From Alphaproteobacteria bacterium (GTDB lineage Bacteria > Pseudomonadota > Alphaproteobacteria > UBA828): 64,000 nt of DNA. Position numbers and translations under genes: made by a program. The notes under the pieces were generated by a model. It made no database searches. It was not told where the DNA came from and was given only the letters and a program-made list of their open reading frames with translations. This document shows positions 57 through 41,369 of the stretch, in pieces; positions within the stretch are counted from its first letter, which is position 1; each line of letters begins with the position of its first letter. The stretch is taken from contig OZ243972.1 in assembly GCA_965214705.1 (NCBI GenBank), positions 384,001-448,000 of the forward strand, given 5' to 3'.

Positions 57-1178
57 ATGACCAGACCCGCCCTCACCGACGCCCGCGTGAGCGCGCTCAA
101 GCCCCGCAACGCCGCACGCGACCTCCGCGACGGCAAGCTGAAGGGCTTCGGCGTCCGTGTCCTGCCCTCGGGACGCAAGCGCTTCTTCGTCCACTGCCAG
201 CACTGCGGCGAGCGGGTCTGGAAGATCATAGGCGACGCCGGCACCATGAGCGTGGAGAATGCGCGTTCGCGCGCACGCGAGACGCTCGCCGCCATCCGGC
301 GGGGCGGGGACGCCCCCCGCGATCCCGCCGAGACCCTCTTCGAGGCCGTCGCCGAGACCGTGTTCGAGCGTCACCGGCGCCTCTGGAAGACCGGAACCCT
401 CGAGGTCAACCGCTGCTACCTCAAGAACCAGATCCTGCCCCATTTCTCGGGACGGCAGATCGCCGACATCGACGGCAAGGACGTCCGGAGCTGGTTCGCC
501 GCGCTCCGCGCCACCCCGGTCGCCGCCGACCGCTCGATGCCGGTGCTCTCCGTCATCATGCGCGAGGCCGAGGCGATGGGGCTCAGGCCCGAAGGCTCCA
601 ACCCATGCCGGGGCATCCGCAGATATCGCCGCAAGGGGCGGGAACGCTTCCTGTCCGACGAGGAGATCCGCCGCCTGTCGGCGGTGCTCTCGGCCCGTGA
701 GGAGCGGTGCCCGGAGAAGGTCGCGGTCGTCCGCCTTCTTCTGCTGACCGGATGCCGCAAGAGCGAGGTCCTGACGCTCCGCTGGTCCGACTACCGCGAG
801 GGGCTTCTGTTCCTGCGCGATTCCAAGACCGGACCCAGAACCGTCTGGCTGTCCACACCTGCCCGCAAGGTGCTCAATGCGCTCCAGCGAAAGGGCCGCT
901 GGGTCTTCCCGGCGCAGCAGGCCGGAGGGCCGCGCAGCAAGAGTTGGCTGAACCGGTTCTGGTACGGGGTTCGCGCCGAGGCCGGTCTTCGCGACGTCCG
1001 GCTCCACGATCTCCGCCACACCAACGCGACCCTCGCCCTGAAGGAAAACGTCCCCGTCCTCGCCATCGGCCGGCTGCTCGGTCACCGCAACGCGGAAACA
1101 ACGCTCAAATATACCCATCTCGCCGACGCCATGGTTGACGATGCCGCCGAGACCGTCGGGGCCGTGCTGGAGCGCTAA
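57..1178 (+). CDS. Tyrosine recombinase/integrase with N-terminal arm-DNA-binding (DUF4102-like) domain, gene A of pair 1
   Basis: N-terminal LTD..V.ALKP...D..L.GFGVRV.PSG.K; catalytic GCRKSE, HDLRH, LGH and Tyr (TLKYTH). Confidence 0.92.
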   Translation: MTRPALTDARVSALKPRNAARDLRDGKLKGFGVRVLPSGRKRFFVHCQHCGERVWKIIGDAGTMSVENARSRARETLAAIRRGGDAPRDPAETLFEAVAETVFERHRRLWKTGTLEVNRCYLKNQILPHFSGRQIADIDGKDVRSWFAALRATPVAADRSMPVLSVIMREAEAMGLRPEGSNPCRGIRRYRRKGRERFLSDEEIRRLSAVLSAREERCPEKVAVVRLLLLTGCRKSEVLTLRWSDYREGLLFLRDSKTGPRTVWLSTPARKVLNALQRKGRWVFPAQQAGGPRSKSWLNRFWYGVRAEAGLRDVRLHDLRHTNATLALKENVPVLAIGRLLGHRNAETTLKYTHLADAMVDDAAETVGAVLER

Positions 1179-2759: not shown

Positions 2760-4263
2760 GAGCCACTTGCAAAACTCCCAGGCGCGGTCTTCTTTTCCCG
2801 AAAGCCCGTCGTGAGGACATTGACGGTCGGAACGTAACATGAACTTCGGGACGAGCGGACGTCGCTGGCTGCCGCCGGGGCGCCGATTCGCGGCAAACCG
2901 ATGCCCATGCGGGCGCATTCTGGACCCGCCGTCGCGATGCGGACATGGCTTTTTGCGCCTCCGCCGAGGGGAGGCGTGCCGGCGTGACAGGGACGGAGGC
3001 GCCCGCTCAGGCCAGGAGGCGCATCAACTGGTCGACCGTCAGCACCAGGATGCCGAACATCAGGTGGCAATGAACCTTGGCATGGCCGCGCACGCGGACA
3101 TGGCGGCCCCCGCAGTTGTCCTTCAGCCCACCGTTGATGCGCTCGATGTTCGAGCGCTCGTTGTAGCGCTCGTCCGCCGGGTGGCGGTGACCGACGCCTC
3201 TCTGCGCCCGGGCCTCGCGCGCCAGTTCCTCCTTGTACTCCTTGTCGCGAGGGTTGATGTCGATGATCGGGACGTGGCCCAGCAGGTAGCTGTGCCAGCC
3301 GATCTCGGGCGCGTCATAGGCTGAGTCCATGAGGTCGTACAGATTGGTGACGCGGTCGGCGGTCATACTCGCCAGCGGGATCGCGGCCTGGCTGTCGTGC
3401 AGCGAGGCGGACGTCAGGATGCAACTGATCGGAATGCCGCCATCGGCGGCGTCGATGTGCAGCTTGTAACCGATCCACGATGTGGTATGGCCCTTGGCGT
3501 TCCGCTTGGTGCCGACGTCGCAGGCTTTCGGCAGGTCGTCGAGCATCTGGGGCAAGCTCATCGTGAGTTGGCGTTTCACGCGGCGCTCCTCCCTGGGCCG
3601 CTCCTCGCCCTTGCGCGGGCGGCCGCGCTTGCGCTTCGGCTTCTCCGCCCTGGGCTTGGGCTGAGGCTTCTCGCGCGCCTCGATCGCCGTCGAGTCGCGC
3701 GAGACGTGCCCGACCAGATGGTCTCCGAGGGTCTGCTTGATCAGCGCCTCATGCACGCGAGCGGGCAACGCACTCTCGGAGAACTCCGCAAACGCCCGCG
3801 AAAACGTCGCCTCGCTCGGGATCTCTGCGGCATAGGTCCAGCCGCAGAGACGGCGTAGCGTCTTGTCGTTCTCAAGGCGCTCGATCAGGGCGCGCGTCGT
3901 GGGTACGTCGAACACCGCCTTGGCGATGAAGGCGCGGGCCAAGGCCGCCCGATCCTCGACCGGCCGACCGGGCAGGCCATGGAAATGGGGAAGGAAGCTC
4001 TCGACCCGCGCAAGCTCAAGCACGGTGACGAAGCGCCGGTACCTCTCGCCGAGCGGCCCGAGCTCCTCCTCAAGCCACGGGAAAAGATCCGCTTGAATGT
4101 GATGCCAGAATCCGGATAGTGTCTGTCCCAGCGACATGGGGCCGCCCTCTCCGTCGACGTTGTCCGAAACCCGACAGGAACAGAGAGCGGTCCCGATTTC
4201 CAGGACAATCTGACCGCCACGGCGGCAAAATCCCGCTCAAATGCGGAATTTTGCAAGTGGCTC
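2760..4263 (-). mobile_element. IS5/IS1182-like insertion sequence
   Basis: TIR GAGCCACTTGCAAAA / TTTTGCAAGTGGCTC; 4-bp TSD CCTC at 2756-2759 and 4264-4267. Confidence 0.88.
3007..4137 (-). CDS. DDE transposase (IS5/IS1182-like)
   Basis: PSEATFSR, RDSTAIEA, GYKLH, MDSAYD and YNERSNIERIN motifs. Confidence 0.9.
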   Translation of the reverse strand: MSLGQTLSGFWHHIQADLFPWLEEELGPLGERYRRFVTVLELARVESFLPHFHGLPGRPVEDRAALARAFIAKAVFDVPTTRALIERLENDKTLRRLCGWTYAAEIPSEATFSRAFAEFSESALPARVHEALIKQTLGDHLVGHVSRDSTAIEAREKPQPKPRAEKPKRKRGRPRKGEERPREERRVKRQLTMSLPQMLDDLPKACDVGTKRNAKGHTTSWIGYKLHIDAADGGIPISCILTSASLHDSQAAIPLASMTADRVTNLYDLMDSAYDAPEIGWHSYLLGHVPIIDINPRDKEYKEELAREARAQRGVGHRHPADERYNERSNIERINGGLKDNCGGRHVRVRGHAKVHCHLMFGILVLTVDQLMRLLA

Positions 4264-5487
4264 CCTCTGGCTCCGGTTCCCCAACATGTTGTACCGGCCG
4301 CCTCGGCGGCGGTATCCGACACGGTCGCAGTTCCTTCCGTGTCTCAACGGATTGCCCGTTAAGTGCCCAGCGATCCGGCACCCCACATATGGAGAAGCCG
4401 GATGTAAGGGGATAAGCCTTAAATTCAATTGGTTAGGGTGGTCTAGTTGGCCGATTTGCAGGTCCTCTGGGTCAAACAGTTGATAGAGAGGCGTTTTCTC
4501 GAACACCGTAAGGCTCAGGATCTGTAGAATTGTGTAGAGGCTCTGCTCCAGCTTCAGCCGCTTGCGGATGATGGCGACCAGGACATGGACCGACACCGCG
4601 ATCCAGATCTGGGTCTTCACAGCGTTCTCCGAGGTGCCGAAGAAGGACTTGATCCGGAGGTGCTGCTTGATCCATTTGAAGAACAACTCGATGTGCCAGC
4701 GGGCACGGTAGAGTTCGGCGATCGTCAGAGCCGGCAGAACGAAGTTGTTGGTGAGGAAGACGAGGGTTTTGTCGCGCTCGGCATCTCGGTACCGGATCCG
4801 CCGTAGCTTGTCGGGATAATCGGTCGCGCTGTTGACGCCGCTTGGCCGTACGACCTGATCGCAGATGAGACCGCGGGTGCGATCGACAGGGCGGGAGTAG
4901 AGGCGGCGGAGCTTGGTGTTGGATTTCGCGCGCAGGACAAGGAAGCTGCCACTGTGATGCAGGTGATGGAGACGGCTGAAGTCGAGGTAGGCCCGGTCCA
5001 TGATGTAGAAGGCTCCGGCCTCCGGCAGCAGCATGTCCATCACATTGACGTCGTGGAGTTTTCCGTCGGAGATGTGGATGAAGGCGGGGATGTGGCCGTG
5101 CAGGTCGAGCAGGGTGTGGAGCTTGACGGCGCCCTTTGTCTTGCGGAACGGAGCCCACGGGAACAGCGACAGGCAGAGGTCGATTGTCGAGGAGTCGAGG
5201 GCATAGACGGTGTTATCAAGATCAAGGCCGAGCGTATTGTCGTCGGCGTAGAGGTTTTGAACGAAGCCGCTACGCGGAGTTAGCGGCGTAGAGTTCATTC
5301 ATTTCCGAGGCGTCGCGGGTGCCGTTTGCCCTGTGCGTTCGCTTCCCGGTTGCGTCAGTGGCGCTCCGCCCGTCGAGTGGCGGATCCCCAGCAGCCTCCC
5401 GATCACCAGTGGTTAGCATCGACCCCTGCGACGGACCGTCGCCGGATCGGTCCGGCGGCGCGCCGTCGCGATCCAGGGAGATCGATC

Positions 5488-6366
5488 ATGACCGGGACCG
5501 CGTGCGACACGAACACCGTCACCCCTCTTCGCCAGCGCATGGAGGAGCAGCTCCGCATCGCCAATCTGGCCGCGAGCACGTCCAAGGCCTACATCTGCGA
5601 GATCAAGAACCTGGCCAGGTACTACGACGCCTCGCCGGACGAGCTCGACGCCGAGCAGGTGCGCCAGTGGTACCTGGGGCGGATCGACAAGGGGCTCAGT
5701 CCGGGCACGACCAACGTCTCCTTCGCCGCGCTGAACTTCCTCTACATCGACACACTCGGCTGGCCTGACCACGTCGCCGGCCTGCGCTCCCGCAAGAAGC
5801 CCGGCAAGCTGCCGCGCTACATGTCGGAGCAGGAGGTCGAGCACCTCATCCTTGCGACGCCCGACCTCCGCCACCGTGCTGCCATTGTCACCGGCTATGG
5901 CGGCGGGCTCCGCATCTCCGAGACCTTGGCCATCAAGGTCGGCGACATCCTGTCGGAGAAGAAGCTGCTACACATCCCCTCCGGCAAAGGCGGCACCGAG
6001 AGAATGGCACCGTTGCCGGACAGCGTCATCCACTACTTGCGCGCCTACTACAGGAACATCTGGCCGCGTCCGACGAGCTGGCTCTTCTACGGCGTCTCGC
6101 TCGACAGGCCCATCGCAACGGAGACCTTGCAGGCCGCCTTCAGGAGGGCGCGCGACATTGCCGCGCTCGACCGCAGCTACACCTTCCATTGCCTGCGCCA
6201 TTCGGCGGCGACCCATCTCCTCGAGCGCGGCGGCGATATCGAGGTGATCCGGGACATGCTCGGCCATCGAAGCGCGAACACGACCCGTCACTACGCCCGC
6301 GTCACCGGCAAGATGTTCGAGGGCCTCGACCACCCGATCTCAGGCTTCGCAGCGTTGCGCAACTGA
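5488..6366 (+). CDS. IS91-associated tyrosine recombinase (integron-integrase/XerD-like)
   Basis: SAM-like N-terminus, GLRISE, GKGG, HCLRHS, LGH, TRHY. Confidence 0.9.
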   Translation: MTGTACDTNTVTPLRQRMEEQLRIANLAASTSKAYICEIKNLARYYDASPDELDAEQVRQWYLGRIDKGLSPGTTNVSFAALNFLYIDTLGWPDHVAGLRSRKKPGKLPRYMSEQEVEHLILATPDLRHRAAIVTGYGGGLRISETLAIKVGDILSEKKLLHIPSGKGGTERMAPLPDSVIHYLRAYYRNIWPRPTSWLFYGVSLDRPIATETLQAAFRRARDIAALDRSYTFHCLRHSAATHLLERGGDIEVIRDMLGHRSANTTRHYARVTGKMFEGLDHPISGFAALRN

Positions 6367-6372
6367 CGGCGC

Positions 6373-7614
6373 GTGGAGGCCGAACGCGCGGGCGTGGCGG
6401 AGATCTTCCGCCGCGCCGGCGCCGCTTTCCGTGAGCGCCACAAAGGGCGCATCGACGCCGCCCGGCTCAAGGTCATGGGCGCCATCGAGGCGTGCCGCAC
6501 CGCCGTGCTCGGCGGCCACATGTACGCCTGCGAGGGCTGCGGGCGCGAGCATCCGCTCTTCAACTCCTGCCGCAACCGCCACTGCCCGACCTGCCAGGGT
6601 CTCGCCGCCAACCTCTGGAGCGAGGCCCGCGCCGGGGACATCCTGCCGGTGCCCTACTTCCATGTGGTCTTCACCCTGCCCAAGGAGGTCGCCGCCATTG
6701 CCTTCTGCAACCGAAGGGTGGTGTTCGACATCCTCTTCCGGGCCGTCGCCGAGACCCTGCGCACCATCGCCGCCGATCCCCACCACGGTGGCATGCGCAT
6801 CGGCGGCACCGCGGTCCTCCATACCTGGGATCAGAAGCTCCGCTTCCACCCGCACCTGCACGTGGTCGTGCCCAACGCGGGCTTCGACGTAGACAGCGGC
6901 GAGTGGAAGACGGGGAGCACCACCTTCCTCGCCCCCGTCAAGGTCCTCGGCAGCCTGTTCCGCCGCCTCTTCCTCAAGGAGCTCGCCCGCGCCCACGGCC
7001 GGGGGGACCTGGAGTTCCACGGCACCGTCGCCCACCTCGCCAATCCCGGCGAGTTCCACGCCACGCTTGCCGCCGCCCGGGCCAGGGACTGGGTGGTCTA
7101 CGCCAAGCGGCCCTTCCGCGGGCCTGAGCAGGTCTTCCGGTACCTCTCGCACTACACGCACAGAATCGCCATCTCCGACAGCCGCATCGTCTCCTTCGAC
7201 GGCGAGACGGTCTCCTTCCGCCACCGAAAGCCCAAGGCGCCGGGGCAGAGAAAGCCGCGCTACGGCATCGCCACCGTGAGCGCAGACGAGTTCATCCGCC
7301 GCTTCCTGATGCACGTCCTGCCGGACGGCATGCACCGCATCCGCTACTTCGGCATTCTCGCCAACGGCTGTCGCGCCAGCACGCTGGAGAGAGCACGCCA
7401 GACTCTCGGCGCCCTCGGCTGCGCCGTCCCCGAGGAAAGCGTGGGCGGCGCTCGGGCCGAGCCCGACGAAGAGACCGTGATCGACACCGCGCCCGTGGCC
7501 TGCCCCCACTGCGGCGGCGTCATGCGCCTCGTCCGCGAAATCCGCCGCCGCCATGAGCCCCGCTCGACGCGCGGTCCGCCGGCCGTGCCGCCGACCCACA
7601 GGGGGAAACCGTGA
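6373..7614 (+). CDS. IS91-family Y2 HUH transposase
   Basis: Zn-binding NSCRNRHCPTCQ, YFHVVFTLP, HPHLH (HUH), YLSHYTHR (Y2), FLMHVLP..HRIRYFG. Confidence 0.93.
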   Translation: MEAERAGVAEIFRRAGAAFRERHKGRIDAARLKVMGAIEACRTAVLGGHMYACEGCGREHPLFNSCRNRHCPTCQGLAANLWSEARAGDILPVPYFHVVFTLPKEVAAIAFCNRRVVFDILFRAVAETLRTIAADPHHGGMRIGGTAVLHTWDQKLRFHPHLHVVVPNAGFDVDSGEWKTGSTTFLAPVKVLGSLFRRLFLKELARAHGRGDLEFHGTVAHLANPGEFHATLAAARARDWVVYAKRPFRGPEQVFRYLSHYTHRIAISDSRIVSFDGETVSFRHRKPKAPGQRKPRYGIATVSADEFIRRFLMHVLPDGMHRIRYFGILANGCRASTLERARQTLGALGCAVPEESVGGARAEPDEETVIDTAPVACPHCGGVMRLVREIRRRHEPRSTRGPPAVPPTHRGKP

Positions 7615-7876
7615 GACGCCCGCTCGCTTCGGCCCCGCGCAACGGCGCCAAAGCGCCGACGCACGACCGAACCTGTCTCCGCTTGGGCCGGGCTGACAGC
7701 CCTCGGCTCACACCCCGCTCAGTCCTCGCAGCGTGCGCCCGCATGCCTGCCGAAAGGCCGGCGCGAGCGTCGATCTCATGCGCAACTCTGCTGCCGGTGG
7801 ATGCCGCCTGACGCTGACATCAGCGCACTTTCCACATAGCTCAACTTCGCCTCTCGTGGCCCGCGCCTCCGTTCAA

Positions 7877-7918
7877 AAGGGTTGGGCAGGCTCTCGAGAG
7901 AGAGCCTGCCCAACCCTT
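7877..7918. repeat. Perfect 19-bp hairpin at the IS91-like end (oriIS candidate)
   Basis: AAGGGTTGGGCAGGCTCTC-gaga-GAGAGCCTGCCCAACCCTT. Confidence 0.8.
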
Positions 7919-8494
7919 AACCTTGGGCGATGTGGATGAGATGTTGAGCGAAGTCGGCGTAGATCTGCCATTCGCGAACGGCGTTGGCATTGGCGAGGGT
8001 GTTGCGCGAGACCCTGCCGCGGATCCCCATGTGATAGAGCTTTGTGGGTTGAACGTTGTGGGTTGAACGCGCAGGCAGGTCTCGATGTCGCGCAAGCTGG
8101 CCCGATAAGTGAGCTGAGCGAAGGCCATGCATCGGTACTGATCCGCGCAGGTGAACGACTTGATCTTGCGGTTTCCGTTGTAACGGGCCACGCAGCGACG
8201 GAAACTGTGCCAGGGTAGGTGATCCATGATTTGCGCGAAGACCAGCTTACCAGAATACATCGGCCATCCTCTCCTGATACATGTTGGACAGGAAAAGCGT
8301 GCCGAACCGGCGCTACGATCTCAAGTCGGTGACTCCCTTGAACAGGATTTCTCGGACGAATATCAATCTGTTAACCGCATCAGCTTCGAAAACGTTGGGT
8401 AACTGCCCAGGTCTGCTTCCGCCGAGCACTCACGCGTGATGGACTGATGCCTCTGGCCTGGTGCCGCTGACGTGGAGCGGAGCGGCGGGGGATT

Positions 8495-10036
8495 TCAGAA
8501 GCGCAGTACCGGGATTAGCTGCATGGGATCGGGGTGCGCCAGGGTTTCGAGGACATTCCAGCGCTGTTTTCGAGCGGTGGCGATGACGGACCGCAGGTTT
8601 GCGAAGTCGCAGGCACCTTGCATCGAGCGGAAGCCGCCTGAGATTTTCTGACGCAGCTTGCCCATTCGCAGATCGCGCTCCGCCTCATTGTTCGAGAACG
8701 GGGTTCGCGGGTCGGTGAGGAAGCGCAGGCAGCCCTCCTTGTACTTCTGGAGCCGGAGCGCGAGGTTGTGACCGATGTGGCGCTTTTGTCGTCCGCGCTT
8801 TCCGGTCTGGAGCGGCGGCATCTCTTCGTGAGCGGCGATGGCACGTTCGAGGATGCGGTCCCAGGCTCGCGAGATGCGGGCGACCAGTGATGCGGGCACG
8901 TCGCGATCATTCTTGCGGGCGAAGCGGGCGGCTCTGTTGGCACGGGAGAGCAGCTGGTGCGTGCTCGTTGCCCAGTCTTCCTTCTCGATCTCGATCAGGG
9001 CCTGGAGCTCACGCAGGTGATGGGCGTTGCAGGCCCCGTGGCGCACGCCCTTGAGAGCGAAGTAGGTGGCATAGTCGTCATGGATGACGATGCCGTTGAG
9101 CTTCTCGTCGAAATGGCCGCGCCCGCTGGCGACGCGCAGGATGGTCAGCAACGGGGTGCACAGCACGTGGAGCCAATGGGTCCGGGCGGCGATGCGGATG
9201 CCGGTCTCGTCGAGGTGTTTGACCGGGGCTTCGGTGCGGATGATCTCTGCGACACGATCGAGGAAGCCCTCGAAGCGCCGGGCGGTGCGCCTGCCCATGG
9301 CGGCGATGGTGGCCGTTGAGATCTTGACCGCGAAGAGATCGCTCATGACCTCGGCGACGCGCTTCTCCGGAATGAACTGAGCGTGCAGCAGGTAGGTCAC
9401 CCACGCGGTGATGCGCGGCCCGTACTGGACCGGGGCGCTCACGCCGTTCGGGAAGGCGGCTGTTGTCATGGTACCGCAGGCGGCGCAGAGGCAGCGATGG
9501 CCGCGATGCTCGGTGGCCTCGAGGGGCTGCGGCTCGGGCACATCGAAGACCTGCCGGCAGACGGCGGCTCCGTGACGGTCGGCGTCCGACAGCGGCGCGC
9601 CGCAGCCCTCGCAGGCGGACGGATCATGATCCACGACGTGGTCCGGGTTCTCGGTCCGCTCCAGGGTGGTTCCCTTGTGGCCCGGCTGACCGCCGCTGGG
9701 CCTGTCGGATTTGCCGCGCCGGCTCCGGGTGCGCTTCTCCTGGTCTCCGCTCTTCTTCTTCAGGCCGTCGCTGGCCGGTGGCTTGGAGCTGGTGGTGCTG
9801 TCGAGCGCGGCGCTGCGCTCAAGTTCGGCGATCCGCTCGCGCAAGCGGGCGTTCTCCCGCTCCAGCGCGTCGTTCTCCTTGACCAGCGCCGCGCTCAGGC
9901 GAAGCAGCCCCTGGCCCCATTCCCGGATGGCTTTGACGGCGGTCATCGCGAAGGATTGTGGGGTGAAAAGGTCCTGCAGGCACGCGAAAGCCTCGTCGTG
10001 AGCGGCGAGGTCCGTGTGCCAGCGCGACACTGTCAC
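8495..10036 (-). CDS. IS66-family transposase
   Basis: Coiled coil, SSKPPASDG, GGQPGHKG, zinc finger, HLDETG, CNAHHLREL, NNEAERDLR. Confidence 0.92.
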   Translation of the reverse strand: MTVSRWHTDLAAHDEAFACLQDLFTPQSFAMTAVKAIREWGQGLLRLSAALVKENDALERENARLRERIAELERSAALDSTTSSKPPASDGLKKKSGDQEKRTRSRRGKSDRPSGGQPGHKGTTLERTENPDHVVDHDPSACEGCGAPLSDADRHGAAVCRQVFDVPEPQPLEATEHRGHRCLCAACGTMTTAAFPNGVSAPVQYGPRITAWVTYLLHAQFIPEKRVAEVMSDLFAVKISTATIAAMGRRTARRFEGFLDRVAEIIRTEAPVKHLDETGIRIAARTHWLHVLCTPLLTILRVASGRGHFDEKLNGIVIHDDYATYFALKGVRHGACNAHHLRELQALIEIEKEDWATSTHQLLSRANRAARFARKNDRDVPASLVARISRAWDRILERAIAAHEEMPPLQTGKRGRQKRHIGHNLALRLQKYKEGCLRFLTDPRTPFSNNEAERDLRMGKLRQKISGGFRSMQGACDFANLRSVIATARKQRWNVLETLAHPDPMQLIPVLRF

Positions 10037-10701
10037 AAACCCTCGTCAGCCTCGACGGCCATGATCGCGGCCAGCACCGCCAGGCGTTCGCCCGCCGGCA
10101 TGGCCTCGTAGCGCCGGCCCCAGTTGGCCGCCTTGCGCTTGATGCGCTGGCGGTCGGTGAAGTTGCGGCCCGCGCAGCTCGCCCAGTGCACCCGGTCGGG
10201 CGCGAAGTTGAACCACACCACCTCGGTCCGCACCCGGGCCTGGGTCGTCACCTGCAGCGCCAGCCGGCGCCAGCCCGCCAGCAACTCGTCATAGAGCGCA
10301 GACGGGTGGCCCGAGACCATCACCTGGCAGGGCAGACCCTTGAGCAGTTCGAGGAGCGCGACGTGGTCGGCCTCCTCGTACTCGAAGCGGTAGCGCTGCG
10401 ACGAACGCCGGGTCGCGTGCAGATAGGGCGGATCGCTGTAGACCAGCTCCGGGCCCAGGAACGGGAACGAGGCCAGAAAGGAGTGGGCGCAGCCGTGCAC
10501 CAACTCCACCGGGTAGCCACAGTCGAAGGACTCAAGCGCCCGCTCGTCGCGGTCAATCCCGATCGAGCGCACGGCCGCAGGCTTGCGCTTCATCAGCGCC
10601 CCGCCCCCCAAGTGGCTCTCAATATAGACAGGGTGCGGGGGCATCAGCGCAATCAGCGCCTGGCTCAGACCACTCGTCGCCTTCGATCCGAAATACCCCA
10701 C
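10033..10701 (-). CDS. Small DNA adenine methyltransferase (Dam/D12-like)
   Basis: YFGSK, YIESHLGGGA (SAM-binding motif variant), YSDPPY (catalytic motif), VMVSG, TEVVWFNF; overlaps the transposase start by 4 nt. Confidence 0.85.
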   Translation of the reverse strand: MGYFGSKATSGLSQALIALMPPHPVYIESHLGGGALMKRKPAAVRSIGIDRDERALESFDCGYPVELVHGCAHSFLASFPFLGPELVYSDPPYLHATRRSSQRYRFEYEEADHVALLELLKGLPCQVMVSGHPSALYDELLAGWRRLALQVTTQARVRTEVVWFNFAPDRVHWASCAGRNFTDRQRIKRKAANWGRRYEAMPAGERLAVLAAIMAVEADEGL

Positions 10702-11189
10702 CGGCTGCTCCTCTCATGCGAGAGAGCAACCCATAGGCGAGCGCGCCTATACAGTCAAGGGGCAGATCATCGACGCGCCGACGGCCAAACGGCACCGGCG
10801 GCGACCAACATCAGCACGCACTCAGATCTGGCGGCGGGGTACCTGGGTAGTTACAACGTTGGGACACTAGTGACCTTGAACTGCACCTTCAGCACCGGAA
10901 CGTTCAGTGTCACCCCATCCCCCGCCTTCCGCCTTGTCATCGCCGGCATCATGGAGGCCGATGCCGTTGCGGCATTTCGGCGCCGCCGGGCCGCCCCGGC
11001 GCGTCACCCGAACGCTGCCCCGCGCTCGGCGCCCTTCCGCAGCGGCGCCGCGGCCGGCCGGGTGCTCGCCCTCATCGCAGACGAGGCGGCGCACGCGCAC
11101 GCGCACGCGCCCATCTGCGCTGCCGCAGCCTCCGCCGCGCTAACCTCCCGAGCGCCCGCACCCCGAAAAGAGCGAGAGGCCTGCCGTGA

Positions 11190-11941
11190 CGGGGCCGCGG
11201 GCGGGCATTCCCGAGAGGCGCGCATTGCGGCCGGCCTCTGCCGCCGGTGCGGCCGCCGGCCGCCTGCGCCCAAACGCACTTCGTGCGAGGAATGTCTCAA
11301 GCGCAAGCGTGTCGCCGACCGGGCCAGGTATGACAAGGGCAAACTTGCCGGCCTGCTCTACGGCGGGTTCGATGCCGAGGTTCGAAGGCGCAACGCCCGC
11401 GCCAGGTCGAAGCGGCGCTATGAGGCGCGCAGGGCCGCTGGAACATGTACCCATTGCGGCCACCGCCCTCCCGCAGACGGGCGAACCAGGTGCGAGCCAT
11501 GCCTCAGCCGGCGCAGTGCCGCCGACCGGGATCAATGGGCAAGCAGACGGGAGCGCCGCCCCGGCGCCCGACGGTGCCGCGAGGTGCGGAACCTGCGCGG
11601 CGAAGCAGGCGGGCAGGCCGTCACGACGGGAATATGCCAGGAAGCAGTACGCACGGCGGCGCGTGCGAGGGGCATGCGCGGATTGCGGCGAGCACGCAGC
11701 CGGCGCCTCGCGATGCCCCACCTACGCACGCAGGTCGTGGCACCGCTCGACGGAACACCGCGGACTGCCCGCAGGTCCGCCCCGCTTCCGGGTCGTCGTC
11801 ATCGACACCGGCGAGACCCTCGAGGGCGAGTGGGAAACCCTGGCCGAGGCCCGCGCCTCGCTGGCCTTCGCCAAGCTCGGTCCCGACGACGTCGAGATCG
11901 GCTGCGACATGCCCGGGATGACGACGCTGGCCTCGTGGTGA
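11190..11941 (+). pseudogene. Cys-rich repeat (CxxCG..PP....CxxC) protein, frameshifted
   Basis: Repeats GLCRRCGRRPPAPKRTSCEEC and GTCTHCGHRPPADGRTRCEPC continue in another frame as GACADCGEHAAGASRC; C-terminal domain shared with 29085-29570. Start uncertain. Confidence 0.6.
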
Positions 11942-36295: not shown

Positions 36296-37560
36296 GCCAG
36301 CCAAGCCTGCACCGCTGCCTCCAGAGAGAGCATGTTCGGATATCCCGTTCAAGCTGCTTGCCGGGGACGCGTCCGAGGATGATCGCAGCGTCGCTCAACC
36401 GAGCAGCGGCGGCTTGCGCGCCATCCAGTCCCGGAACTGCCGCTCGACCACCGGCCCGGCGTCCGGGCCGAACACCGCCACGAGCAGCGGCCCGAGCTCG
36501 TGCTCCCGGCTCTGCAGTACGAGGTCGTCCAACGTCGTCATGAGCAGCAGCTCGACCGACTGCCGCAGCCGTTCGATCGACCCTCCGGAGGCCGTCGACA
36601 GCATACTCTCGGCCAGGCGGTCCACACGGTCGAGCAGCCGGCGCTGTTCCGCCTCGCTCAGCGCCAGAGCCGGCGCGTTCGCCTGCGCGGGGTCTAGTGT
36701 CCTGATCCATAAGTTCGTATTACTGCATTGTTGATTGAAGCGAGGAGGCTCATTCCGTGGCGAGAACAGCGGTGGACATCATCCTGACAGATGAAGAGCG
36801 CAAGGAGCTGGATCGGCTGAGCCGGAGCCGCAAGTCGTGGCAGGCCTTGGCGCTGAGAGCGCGGATCGTGCTGGCGGCAGCGGACGGTCTGTCCAACAAG
36901 GAGATTTCGGCCCTTTTGGAGGTCACGGAGTTGACCGTCGGCAAGTGGCGCCGCCGCTTCGCCGAAGACCGCCTCGACGGTCTGCATGACGCGCCGCGTT
37001 CGGGCGCGCCCCGGCGCATCGGCGACGACGAGGTTGCCGAGGTCGTTCGCATGACGCTGGAGGAAACACCGCCCGACGCCACCCACTGGAGCCTGCGCTC
37101 GATGGCGCGCGCCACCGGTTACGGCGCCTCGACCATCCATCGCATCTGGCAGGCCTTTTCCCTGCAGCCGCACCGCAGCGAGACCTTCAAGCTGTCGGCG
37201 GACCCGTACTTCGTGGACAAGGTGCGCGACATCGTCGGCCTGTACGTGGACCCGCCGCAGCATGCCATGGTTCCCTGTGTGGACGAGAAGTCCCAGGTTC
37301 AGGCCCTCGACCGCACCCAGCCCTTGCTGCCGCTGCGGCCCGGCCAGGTTGAGCGGCGCACCCATGACTACAAGCGCAACGGCACGACCTCGTTGTTCGC
37401 CGCCCTCGACGTCGCCACCGGCGAGGTCATCGGCAAGTGTTTCCACCGTCACCGAAGCCGGGAGTTCCGCAAGTTCCTGGACCACATCGAGGCCAACGTG
37501 CCCGAGGATCTCGACATCCATATCGTCATGGACAACTACTGTAAGAGGGGCAAATCTTGG

Positions 37561-38231
37561 GAGCGCCAGGCTAACTCTGTCGTGGATAGCCGGTGAAAGT
37601 CCGGTGAAGGGAAGGACTAACGAACCACCCTTGCCTTGAGCCGTGCGTCGGCCTTCGCGAGGAGGCAGGCGAAGCGTCGGTAGAGGTGCGCGTGGGCAGG
37701 ACATTGAGCACCGAAAATGCCGTCATTCGGAGTGCCGAGGCCATCCAGAAGGTCGAAGGCAACACCGGCCGCCCGCTTTCGTGAGGGCCGGCAGGGCTCC
37801 GCGGTGTCCAAGACCCCAGGCACGCGCGTACGTCCACACAGGGGACCTGGGAGGCCTCTTCATCACCCGTGCCTCAGAGTGCGGGTCGTGACGGGAAGGG
37901 TGGATGCCCATAGCCGTCGATGTACGATGGGGAGGAATCTGACTCGGTCGTAGTACCGTTGAAACGGGGGAACAAAGGGGCGTGACAACCTTGGCGGACT
38001 TCGTGGAGGAAAGGACCGGGGCCAACGGGAGATCGGGGACCTGAAGCATGTGCCGGGCACAGAACCGGGTAAGCATGTCACAGGAGGGTCTCCGAACACG
38101 CCGCCGTGCGAGACGTCGCAAGAGCGACGAGAGTGCGCCGGACGTCTGACCGGAGGCAGGAGCCGGATGCCTTAGCGGGCACGTCCGGATCTGCGCGGGG
38201 GGCGCTGGGTAACCAGCGTCCCTACCGCGAA
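37561..38231 (+). ncRNA. ORF-less group II intron ribozyme
   Basis: Domain V GAGCCGGATGCC-TTAG-CGGGCACGTCCGGATC (38160-38191, AGC triad); domain VI GGGGCGCTGG-TAA-CCAGCGTCCCT-A-CCGCGA; domain I motifs GGTGAAAGTCC, GAAGCGT, GAAGGCAACA; TCTGAC..GTAGTACC and GTGGAGGAAAGG; no RT ORF. Confidence 0.85.
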
Positions 38232-38278
38232 GATGAAGCGGCGTGGTTCCGGCTTTGAGGTCCGGTTTGGGCAGGACC

Positions 38279-39946
38279 TCAGATGGCCTGCGGAGCGAGC
38301 ACTGGGCCAGCGGTCGGTCGCTGGCGCGCGAGGTCGGGGAGCCAGGGGACACTTTCGGCACCTGGGATGCCCAGGCGGTCACCGAGGTAGTTCCAGAATG
38401 AGATGCCGTGGCGGGCACAGGTCTTCATGTGGGTGAGGAAGGCGTCGCGGCAGGCACGGCCTTGATCCGAGCGGGTTCCGCCCGAGACCTTGCGGCGGAC
38501 GACACAGACGCGCAGGTCGTTCTCGGTACCGTTGGTGTGGGCCGGCACGTCGGGACGGTCGAGCACGGCGAGCAGCTTGTCGCGGTTGGCGAGGGTGCGC
38601 CCGATCTGCTCGTCGAGCAGGCGGTAGCCGGTGCCGGTCCGGAAGGTACGCGCGAAGCTGCGCTCGACGACGGCGCGTCTGCGCGGACTTGGCTGGCGGC
38701 AATAGGCACCGAGCAGCCGGTACGTCCGCCAGATGCCGCCGCGCACCTGATCGACGGCCGCACGGCTCGCGTCGCTCCAGACCGGCAACGTGCGATAGAG
38801 CCTCTCGGCATGGATCCAGCACAGGAACTGGTGCAGGCCGAGGTCGAACTGGCCGGCGTCGTCGCTCAGGATGGCGCTGTCCTCGCGCAGCAGGCCATGG
38901 GCGAACAGACAGCCGAGCCGGGCGCCCTCGGTGGCGAGGAGCCGGGCCCTGGGGGCGTCGATCCCGAGCCCGTCGAGGAACGCCATCCACAGGTCAGGCC
39001 CGTCAAACCGACCACCGGCATGCCCCCTCAACGCGTCAAGCGCCCGACGCGGCATGCTGTGGCTCTCCATGTGCCGGAACGCTTCATCGTTCAGCACGTA
39101 CTCGTCGAGGGCGCCGCACATCGTGTCGAGGAAGCTCAGACGGCTCTTCGACCCCGTCGTTCCGAACCAGCCGAAGCAATCGTTGCCGATCGAGATGCAA
39201 TAGCCGTTGCGCCCTTGATGGCGCGCGCCAGTGTCGTCGACCGAGATCCAGGCCGCCCCCTCAAGACCCGCCTTCAGTATCTCCGCCGCCTCGCCGACGA
39301 ACGGTTCCCTGTTCCCGGTCAGCAGGCGCCGCACCTGACGCTCCGAGATGTCGAGGCCGATCGCATCGAGCAGGGCAGTGATGCGCGGGATCGTGCTCTG
39401 GCCCTGGTGGTAGAGCATCAGCACGAAGCGATGCAGCTCCAGGTTGAAGCCGCCGATCACGCCGTCGGGCAGCTCAGCGACGATGATGCGCCCATCCGGC
39501 GTCACCACGCGCTCGCGCTGAAAAACGACGTTGTGGACTTCGAGTTCCAGCAGTTGGGCGTGATAGTCCTGGTAATCTTTGTGGACCGAGCCCTCGGGCG
39601 CGTCCTCTACGCAGACGACCACGCGCTTCGCGTCCTTGCGGCCCTGCTTGGGGCCTCGCCGCTTCTTCGAGGCGCCCGAAGAGCGCCGGCCTCCCTCCAG
39701 GCCCTTGCCGCCCGAGCCCTTGCCGTCTCCGTCGCCCGCGCCCGGTTTGATATCCGGCTTGCCGGGCAACCTCTTGAGTTGGCGGATCTCGGCCTTGAGC
39801 ATCTCGATCGTCTCGGTGTGCACTGCGACCGTCTCCTTGAGACGCTCGTTCTCGGCACGCAGCTCAAGGATCGTTTCCGCCTGCGCGGCGTTCGTCGCCC
39901 GCAGTTCCTCGATCAACCGAGCCTGGGTTTGAAGCGAATCGACCAT
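38279..39946 (-). CDS. IS66-family transposase
   Basis: Coiled-coil N-terminus, SVDDTGARHQG, SKSRL, SDDAGQF, CWIHAER, HTNGTENDLR..RKVSGGTRS. Confidence 0.88.
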   Translation of the reverse strand: MVDSLQTQARLIEELRATNAAQAETILELRAENERLKETVAVHTETIEMLKAEIRQLKRLPGKPDIKPGAGDGDGKGSGGKGLEGGRRSSGASKKRRGPKQGRKDAKRVVVCVEDAPEGSVHKDYQDYHAQLLELEVHNVVFQRERVVTPDGRIIVAELPDGVIGGFNLELHRFVLMLYHQGQSTIPRITALLDAIGLDISERQVRRLLTGNREPFVGEAAEILKAGLEGAAWISVDDTGARHQGRNGYCISIGNDCFGWFGTTGSKSRLSFLDTMCGALDEYVLNDEAFRHMESHSMPRRALDALRGHAGGRFDGPDLWMAFLDGLGIDAPRARLLATEGARLGCLFAHGLLREDSAILSDDAGQFDLGLHQFLCWIHAERLYRTLPVWSDASRAAVDQVRGGIWRTYRLLGAYCRQPSPRRRAVVERSFARTFRTGTGYRLLDEQIGRTLANRDKLLAVLDRPDVPAHTNGTENDLRVCVVRRKVSGGTRSDQGRACRDAFLTHMKTCARHGISFWNYLGDRLGIPGAESVPWLPDLARQRPTAGPVLAPQAI

Positions 39947-40195
39947 GGACCCTCCGCGCGCAGGCTGTCCATAAAGCGCGCGAAGTCCAGCGAAAAATGC
40001 GCGCTCAACCCCCTGATCCGGATCGGCAACGCGGTCGCGTCACATGGCCGGGCCCATGGCCGCTGCACCCGGAACTGGAAGCGCGATGGCCAGGAAACGC
40101 TGAAGGTGGCCCGATGCCATCACCAAGGACTACCGTCAGCGCCGGGCGTAACAAACAGGTACCCCCAAGCGACATCACACCAGTTGCGCGCGCTC

Positions 40196-40485
40196 ACCAA
40201 GTCCCCTGTGTGGACGTACGCGCTCACCTGGGGTCTCGGACACCGCGGAGCCCCGCCGCCCTCACGAAAACGGGCGGCCGGTGTTGCCTTCGACCTTCTG
40301 GATGGCCTCGGCACTCCGAATGACGGCATGTTCGGTGCTCGATGTCCTGCCCACGCGCACCTCTACCGACGCTTCGCCTGCCTCCTCGCGAAGGCCGACG
40401 CACGGCTCAAGGCAAGGATGGGTCGTCAGTCCTTCCCTTCACCGGATTTTCACCGGCTGTCCACGACAAAGTTAGGCTGGCGCTC
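40196..40485 (-). ncRNA. Truncated inverted copy of the group II intron 5' region (domain I)
   Basis: Reverse complement aligns with 37561-37850 with scattered substitutions; no domain V/VI seen on this strand. Confidence 0.8.
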
Positions 40486-41369
40486 CCAGGATTTGCCCCT
40501 CTTACCAACTACTCGACGCACAAGACAAAGGAAGTCCGCGCCTGGTTCGCCAAGCGGCCTCGCTGGCATGTCCACTTCACGCCGACCTCGGCGTCGTGGC
40601 TCAACCAGGTGGAGCGGTTCTTCTCCGATCTGACGGAGAAGCAGATCCGTCGCGGGGTTCACCGCTCGACCGTCGAGTTGGAGCAGGCGATCACCGCGTA
40701 CATCGAGGCCGTCAACGAGGACCCCAAGCCGTTCCGCTGGCACAAGTCAGCCGACGAAATCCTGGCTTCCATCAAGCGCTTCTGCCTGAGAACCCTCGAA
40801 CTCGCGCCAGCTCAATCATAGCTATGCGAACTTCGGAATCAGGACACTAGTGTCGTGTCCCACAGATACGCGTAGTATAATGATGACCTCTCAAGCGCCA
40901 GGAGGTCGTCATGCCGCGCGGACGCCAACTCCCGCCACTGGTTCTCGCTGCCGATCAACGGGATCAGTTGGTGACCCTTTCGCAATCGACCTCGATGCCG
41001 CACGGCCTTGTGCAGAGGGCCCGCATGATCCTGGCCTGTGCGGAGGGCCTGACCAACACCGCCGTGGCCGAGCGGCTGGATGTCTCGCTGTCGGCGGTCG
41101 GCAAATGGCGGCGCCGGTTCCTGGAGCAGGGGGTTCAGGGGCTACATGACGAACTTCGCCCGGGACGTCCCCGCAGCTATGGCGACGAGAAGGTGGCCGG
41201 ACTGATCAACCGCGCCCTGCAGAAGAAGCCGGACAACGCCGACGCCTGGAGCGTCCGCCTGATGGCGGAAGCCGAGGGTGTGTCAAAGAGCACCGTGCAA
41301 CGCTGGTTCTCGCTGTTCGGGGTCAAGCCGCACCGGAGCGACACCTTCAAGCTGTCCAGCGATCCGTTC

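Follow-up and report, generated by a model that had tools for sequence, protein, structure and literature searches.

A 2965-bp element at positions 37541-40505 of the window (the whole 64,000-nucleotide stretch of contig OZ243972.1 from an alphaproteobacterium that was analysed) is very probably an IS66-like insertion sequence (IS) that was colonised by a group II intron without an open reading frame (ORF), which homes to the terminal inverted repeat (TIR) of the IS; the intron at the left end would be a recent arrival and the one at the right end an old remnant. The arrangement is one of parasite on parasite, of a known kind, and represents no new class of ribozyme-transposon fusion. An initial annotation had weighed two readings, one being the insertion of a TIR-targeting intron at both ends of the IS, the other a chimeric element that co-opted intron RNA. 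The former was borne out by copies with empty sites, by identical introns at four sites, and by pairing between exon-binding site 1 (EBS1) of the intron and intron-binding site 1 (IBS1) in the TIR, with further backing from tandem introns and from full-length introns at the transposase-upstream end of another IS copy.

The element is bracketed by one 8-bp target site duplication (TSD; CAACTACT, at 37533-37540 and 40506-40513) and interrupts an IS630-like transposase gene (HTH_32 and DDE_3 domains), of which one part occupies 36757-37540 and the other begins at 40506. The arrangement is an IS within an IS. In contigs of three of the four public runs, position 37532 was joined to 40506 with eight shared letters, which identifies an empty target site and an uninterrupted IS630-like gene in those contigs; window parts lacking contig cover were excluded as evidence from this comparison. 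The TIRs, GTAAGAGGGGCAAATC(T/C)TGG, measure 20 bp each and are inverted (37541-37560, GTAAGAGGGGCAAATCTTGG, plus strand; 40486-40505, minus strand). Group II intron sequence starts 20 bp inside each of them, and the Rfam covariance model RF02005 (gathering score of 49) matched domain I in both arms, with 168.1 bits at 37596-37816 on the plus strand and 154.7 bits at 40231-40450 on the minus strand. The inverted arms (37541-37850 and 40197-40505) were 94.2% identical over 310 nt in blastn, and an inverted-repeat search returned them as I1 (248 nt at 96%) and I2 (65 nt at 89%). The initial annotation had described the single TSD, the 20-bp offset, and arms of about 310 bp in the same way.

The left arm continues into a complete intron of 671 nt (37561-38231, plus strand), whose bounds were taken from the comparison of filled and empty sites and are uncertain by 0-2 nt because GA is common to both sides of the junction. 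It contains no reverse transcriptase (RT) frame, and no RT/maturase was found in its domain IV; it is thus ORF-less. Domains V and VI (D5/D6) occupy 38158-38231, with a bulged branch-point A visible in domain VI (CCCUACCGCGAA), 8 nt from the 3' end, and over 83 nt its D5/D6 shared 92% identity with those of RT-encoding introns in the same genome. The domain I match and this D5/D6 likeness uphold the earlier description of a complete ORF-less ribozyme. As also described earlier, the intron begins with GAGCG and ends with CGAA, which differs from the canonical 5' GUGYG and 3' AY. Two other intron families in the genome begin with GAGCG or GAGUG, 35 nt ahead of the RF02005 match and in exactly the place occupied by the GUGCG start of their relatives. 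One of these families (C2:402), on inspection, encodes a 513-aa RT of its own, one of the two shares the AA 3' end, and an intron of another genome (G039) also starts with GAGCG. On this comparison, the GAGCG...AA ends are a natural variant of the clade and not decay. A covariation of the second intron base with the last base (GAG...AA versus GUG...AU) was considered and dropped, as the G039 intron reads GAGCG...GAU.

BLAST searches of the 7.9-Mb genome with the element and its junction sequences retrieved further copies of the IS. The copy in the window (copy 1) and copy 2 (C1:2635785-2638746, TSD CATCTCTC) carry the intron at the left end and the truncated arm at the right end, upstream of the transposase gene. 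Copy 3 (C1:1501614-1503904, TSD GATTGCAA; the blastn match, to q692, ends at 1503884 and the left TIR lies beyond) has the same truncated arm and an empty left end, where the TIR leads directly to GATGAAGCGG. Copy 4 is 95% identical (C1:1861218-1863187, match ending at 1863167); its left end is empty, and its transposase-upstream end consists of a variant TIR (GTAAGTGGGGCAAATTCTGG), two complete introns head to tail, and native IS sequence (GGACGGATTG...), which copies 1-3 lack. Copy 5 (C1:4122988-4124596, match starting at 4123008) is empty at the left end, and its other end was probably cut off by another insertion or rearrangement, the IS stopping at query position 2280 with unrelated sequence beyond (C1:4124596). 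The empty left site reads TIR20|GATGAAG in copies 3, 4, and 5. A lone intron was found on contig C3 at the site GGGGCAGAATCTGG|G, which looks like the TIR of the IS66-like element; it interrupts a transposase gene of the IS91 family in sense orientation (locus C3:1787674-1791360, intron at about 1515-2185 therein), with Zn_Tnp_IS91 upstream and Y2_Tnp downstream. No matching 8-bp duplication was present in the flanks of copy 4, a rearranged IS copy whose intron pair (C1:1859825-1861187) follows a variant TIR with full complementarity to EBS1.

The five full-length introns were all identical (671/671) and occupied four different sites, which would argue for recent intron mobility. Copies 1 and 2 of the IS differed at 22 of 1961 body positions (1.1%) and 7 of 309 right-arm positions (2.3%); as the introns are identical while these IS copies diverge, the left introns appear younger than the split of the two copies. 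Copies 2 and 3 showed no difference over 2271 aligned positions, left intron aside. Barring gene conversion or precise loss, the left introns would thus have entered existing IS insertions. The earlier statement that the unit had moved with IS66 ends stands for the IS plus its right arm and probably does not extend to the left intron.

The right arm (40197-40485, minus strand) corresponds to intron positions 1 to about 290; as annotated initially, it ends within domain I and is upstream of and co-directional with the transposase gene. It lacks the catalytic domains (domains II-VI) and retains the EBS1 hairpin. The truncation was identical in copies 1, 2, and 3, each of which has its own TSD, and the three arms shared 13 substitutions relative to the full-length copies, all stopping at intron position of about 290. 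Alignment with copy 4 and with a relative in a second genome of the same genus (G004) showed that the native IS bases next to the TIR, about 30 nt, are missing from copies 1-3, and that about 18 nt next to the right arm (about 40179-40196) have no counterpart in copy 4 or G004. The joint absence of intron positions 291-671 and of the adjoining IS sequence indicates that the arm arose by a deletion spanning both. The ancestor shared by copies 1-3 already had the truncated arm, which has travelled with the IS through three or more insertions, and we infer that it is a neutral passenger. The initial annotation had envisaged that the element might be a one-off decayed insertion whose relatives all lack the intron; this describes the right arm, and the two-armed form itself is not single-copy, being present in copies 1 and 2.

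Among 60 related genomes, the IS body was found only in G004, at 87% identity over query positions 773-2597. The G004 copy comprises 2073 bp with TIRs GTAAG(T/A)GGGGCAAATTCTGG, the TSD TGGCCATG, and a 559-aa transposase, and intron sequence is absent from both of its ends. Other copies with different TSDs and an intron-free relative, both of which the initial annotation had proposed to look for, were found. Scans of one genome per species, which may omit the genome of the window and very near ones, gave no match for the TIR-intron junction pattern, and the TIR alone was located at 11 loci with 12 TIR ends, G004's included, all 12 of which run into IS sequence and not into intron. In the collections searched, intron occupation of this TIR thus appears confined to the lineage of the window.

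How the intron recognises the TIR could be read from its domain I. The motif CCAGAA at 37745-37750 (intron positions 185-190, plus strand) lies in an 8-nt hairpin loop of the minimum-free-energy fold, and the insertion point is between TIR base pairs 20 and 21, 5'-GGGGCAAAT(C/T)CTGG^G, so that the outer 20 bp of the left TIR serve as the 5' exon and their last six nucleotides as IBS1. The loop pairs at all six positions with the exon UUCUGG (-6 to -1) of the variant TIR in copy 4 and of G004-type TIRs, and at five of six with UCCUGG of the usual TIR and AUCUGG of the IS91 site; for UCUUGG, the left TIR of the window copy, five of six positions pair, one of them as a wobble. Four other intron families of the genome show the same complementarity between the homologous loop and exon positions -6 to -1 (loop/exon CUCAUC/GAUGAG, UGAGCA/UGCUCA, CAGAUU/AGUCUG, and UUCGUU/AGCGGA), as do three families from G004, G017, and G047, the pairing in G047 being read by eye after correction of a one-base offset. 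Covariation of loop and exon in eight intron families identifies the loop as EBS1, and the EBS1/IBS1 pairing proposed for inspection in the initial annotation is accordingly that of CCAGAA with the last six TIR bases. Each of the four kinds of site has G as the opening base of the 3' exon, and G is also the first base of the intron. As the first G of the intron matches the first downstream G of the site, the site is regenerated upon insertion, which explains the head-to-tail tandem.

The sole ORF between the arms (38279-39946, minus strand) encodes a 555-aa transposase, a distant IS66-family DDE enzyme, and its frame is intact in copies 1-4. With regard to the initial designation of the element as IS66, the protein matched Pfam PF03050 (DDE_Tnp_IS66; 42.6 bits against a cut-off of 23.1, restricted to aa 371-496 and profile positions 147-281 of 284) and fell short of NCBIfam NF033517 (IS66), with 83.2 bits against a cut-off of 180. 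The nearest plasmid-borne transposase homologues were about 40-47% identical and annotated plainly as 'transposase'. The 8-bp TSD, an IS66 trait, was present in copies 1-3 (CAACTACT, CATCTCTC, and GATTGCAA) and in the G004 relative (TGGCCATG), and both IS ends begin with GTAAGAGGGGCAAAT.... GTAAG-type terminal repeats are a feature of the IS66 family in ISfinder, and the combination of an 8-bp TSD with GTAAG ends suits that family. On this protein and terminal sequence evidence, the IS is IS66-like and its transposase a distant IS66 relative. The classical IS66 group carries tnpA and tnpB upstream of tnpC, and a single-ORF subgroup exists; the accessory genes tnpA and tnpB are absent from the element, which holds one ORF only. 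On either side of the gene lie native IS sequences, namely the 3' exon of the intron (38232-38278, GATGAAGCGG...), which abuts the TIR in the empty-site copies, and the region upstream of the transposase gene (39947-40196, minus strand), which is conserved in the intron-free G004 relative. Promoter and terminator scanning of 37400-40650 returned no site of either kind, a result that is uninformative in both directions.

As the intron RNA is ORF-less, it must be mobilised in trans, and we infer that this is achieved by the RT/maturase of another intron in the genome. The genome is rich in such introns: RF02005 matches it at 33 places, 27 of them above the cut-off, and the maturase domain GIIM at 43. 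Two related full-length introns each encode a 513-aa RT in which an endonuclease domain was not detected, and both hold a nested second intron with an RT of 436 aa (363 aa in one copy, L029). These RF02005-type introns reach 3.9-5.6 kb owing to the nested intron, which is located just upstream of the 513-aa RT gene (C2:398000-403000 and C3:1609000-1615800); in the latter locus (L029), a UPF0236 (transposase-like) ORF is present on the opposite strand. The ORF-less intron was 81-92% identical to the full-length introns in domains V-VI. Neither the two 513-aa RTs nor the 436-aa RT of the nested intron showed LX3AX3PXLF[V/A]HW, the class D motif known from the RmInt1 group.

The proposed history starts from an intron-free IS of about 2.07 kb, which encodes a single transposase of 555 aa, has TIRs of the GTAAG... 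type, and is flanked by an 8-bp TSD. Its TIR would be the homing site of the intron and, being an inverted repeat, would offer two sites per IS, one per strand. The mechanism of entry was presumably retrohoming, with the RT/maturase of another full-length intron supplying mobility in trans. An earlier full-length insertion at the right end would have been followed by deletion of intron positions 291-671 and about 30 nt of the IS; as the outer 20 bp of the TIR survived, the IS could have gone on transposing with the dead fragment as a passenger. The left intron would represent a recent and independent retrohoming event into an IS already in place. The 310-bp arms, being due to two insertions of different age, would then be a by-product and not a functional module.

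Several observations weigh against this history. The left TIR of the element itself (UCUUGG) gives the weakest pairing of the four sites, and a column-wise search for exon complementarity across five families revealed no convincing common position for EBS2, the only candidate being UGUCC (intron positions 245-249) with GGGCA (-13 to -9). RF00029 scored domains V and VI at 32.8 bits (38158-38231), under its gathering score of 40. The RTs of the full-length introns are candidate helpers, and even the nearest of these introns share no more than 69-72% identity with the ORF-less one in domains I-III. Gene conversion among the intron copies could also yield the 671/671 identity, and copy 3 may have lost an intron rather than copy 2 gained one. 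Splicing and transcription of the intron are putative.

A functional chimera, in which the right arm acts as a structured 5' leader or in which pairing of the arms or antisense RNA from the left intron controls the transposase, was judged very unlikely. The location of the right arm upstream of the transposase gene and in the same direction, its presence in three IS copies and in contigs of other runs, the 94% complementarity of the arms over 310 nt, and the retained EBS1 hairpin would all fit such a function. However, the arm is derived by deletion and lacks domains II-VI, intron-free relatives have an intact transposase (559 aa in G004), and none of the 12 TIR ends found elsewhere has an arm. 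The arm also shows no sign of constraint, as copies 1 and 2 differ more in it (2.3%) than in the IS body (1.1%); the co-option of the right arm raised in the initial annotation was therefore not supported, the arm being a deletion remnant that relatives in other species lack and that has changed no more slowly than the body. The left intron had been annotated as antisense to the transposase, but it ends 47 nt beyond the stop codon and does not overlap the ORF. Its absence from the otherwise identical copy 3 makes it optional, against the suggestion of a co-opted ribozyme-transposon chimera. A related idea, that the IS has taken over the 290-nt domain I remnant, is similarly given only a slight chance. 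The remnant would serve either as a decoy for introns or their ribonucleoproteins (RNPs), an idea prompted by the retained EBS1 hairpin, the regenerated TIR20|G target, and the tandem introns at that end of copy 4, or as a leader pairing with read-through antisense RNA from the left intron. If the leader version were true, it would constitute an intron-sensing brake that shuts the transposase down once both ends are occupied.

It is also improbable, though less so, that the IS and both intron sequences transposed as one unit, so that the left intron arrived by DNA transposition. Copies 1 and 2 each have one 8-bp TSD around all 2965 bp, and the right arm demonstrates that 20 bp of TIR can suffice at that end. 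Against this, copies 1 and 2 have the same left intron at all 671 positions, compared with 22/1961 differences in the bodies and 7/309 in the arms; copy 3 equals copy 2 minus the intron, and an identical intron is also found at two non-homologous sites. Another account with very little probability regards the right arm as an abortive or partial retrohoming product and not as the result of a later deletion. Reverse transcription starts at the intron 3' end, and abortive events give 5'-truncated copies. The arm has the 5' end and lacks the 3' end, opposite to this expectation, and the adjacent 30 nt or so of the IS are also gone, with about 18 nt lacking a counterpart in their place. Shortened group II intron copies are nevertheless common in bacterial genomes (PMC5894124).

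The homing into the TIRs of an IS that is proposed here has its closest precedent in RmInt2 of Sinorhizobium meliloti GR4 and its host ISRm17, the same strategy being used here by an ORF-less intron on an IS66-like element. The RmInt2 report (Martinez-Rodriguez et al. 2014, PMC4615759) places all copies in the inverted repeats of ISRm17, with two target sites per IS on opposite strands (repeated in Toro et al. 2018, PMC5894124), attributes head-to-tail copies to the ability of EBS3 to pair with the first G of the intron, and notes that target mismatches are tolerated; ISRm17 is given as an ISNCY-family element (PMC10194956). As with RmInt2, the introns here lie inside the TIRs at both IS ends: copies 1 and 2 have one at the left end, copies 1-3 have a truncated one at the right end, and copy 4 has its tandem pair there. 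They also share the head-to-tail tandem and the relaxed target. RmInt2 differs in being autonomous with its own 419-aa class D RT, whereas the present intron is ORF-less. Unlike ISRm17, the host IS is IS66-like, and a decayed intron copy is now its fixed passenger.

IS elements are likewise said to be homing targets of further group II introns of bacteria, such as RmInt1 in ISRm2011-2 (PMC5894124). The present case resembles the RmInt1 type in using a mobile element as a safe home and in the lack of an endonuclease domain in the RT; the RmInt1-type introns differ in that they are autonomous and target sites within the IS or the transposase gene, not the terminal repeat. ORF-less group II introns of bacteria and archaea have reportedly been mobilised in trans, a Thermosynechococcus case among them. 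The intron described here is similarly a ribozyme-only derivative in several identical copies within a genome rich in RT-encoding relatives, but it differs from them in having a target of its own, the TIR of one IS family. IStrons are group I introns fused to IS200/605 or IS607 elements (Tourasse et al. 2014, PMC4227781). They too combine a ribozyme and a transposase in one repeated unit, in which the ribozyme splices the whole unit from the host RNA and both parts move together. In contrast, the ribozyme in the present element belongs to group II, is complete alone and optional, and is unable to remove the IS from a transcript; the initial annotation was right that the layout could not splice out the whole element, as the left copy forms a whole intron on its own and only domain I is present in the right arm. 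Literature searches on titles and listings found no description of this arrangement of an intron in the TIR of an IS66-like element.

If correct, the reading provides a natural example of one selfish element specialising on another, with a ribozyme that would take its protein from other introns and find its home in the TIR of a single IS family. Transposition with only the outer 20 bp of the repeat at one end would bound the sequence that the transposase needs there, and the five identical copies suggest that an intron with GAGCG...AA ends can be mobile. A defunct piece of intron can apparently persist as a stable passenger, and the resulting 310-bp inverted arms may be mistaken for a new type of element.

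Several side observations were made in other genomes. The nearest intron relatives in another genome were also found in G004 (L024-L026), with 82% identity over domain I, a GAAUG start by alignment, and an open frame of about 500 aa, and are located within a repeated gene; their flank presumably resembles an IS6-family transposase. Plasmid pRmeGR4b of S. meliloti GR4 carries a 41%-identical IS with a related TIR (GTACGTGGGGCAAATCGGGTGGC) and the start GTACGTGGGGCAAAT...; this homologous IS comprises 2239 bp with perfect 23-bp TIRs (in 3089-11660) and adjoins a gene annotated as a retron Ec67-type reverse transcriptase. On three contigs labelled as a Dehalococcoidia metagenome-assembled genome (MAG; L033, L034, and L037), the first 90 nt of the IS ends matched those of the alphaproteobacterial G004 (L038) letter for letter, which suggests a binning error or a very recent transfer.

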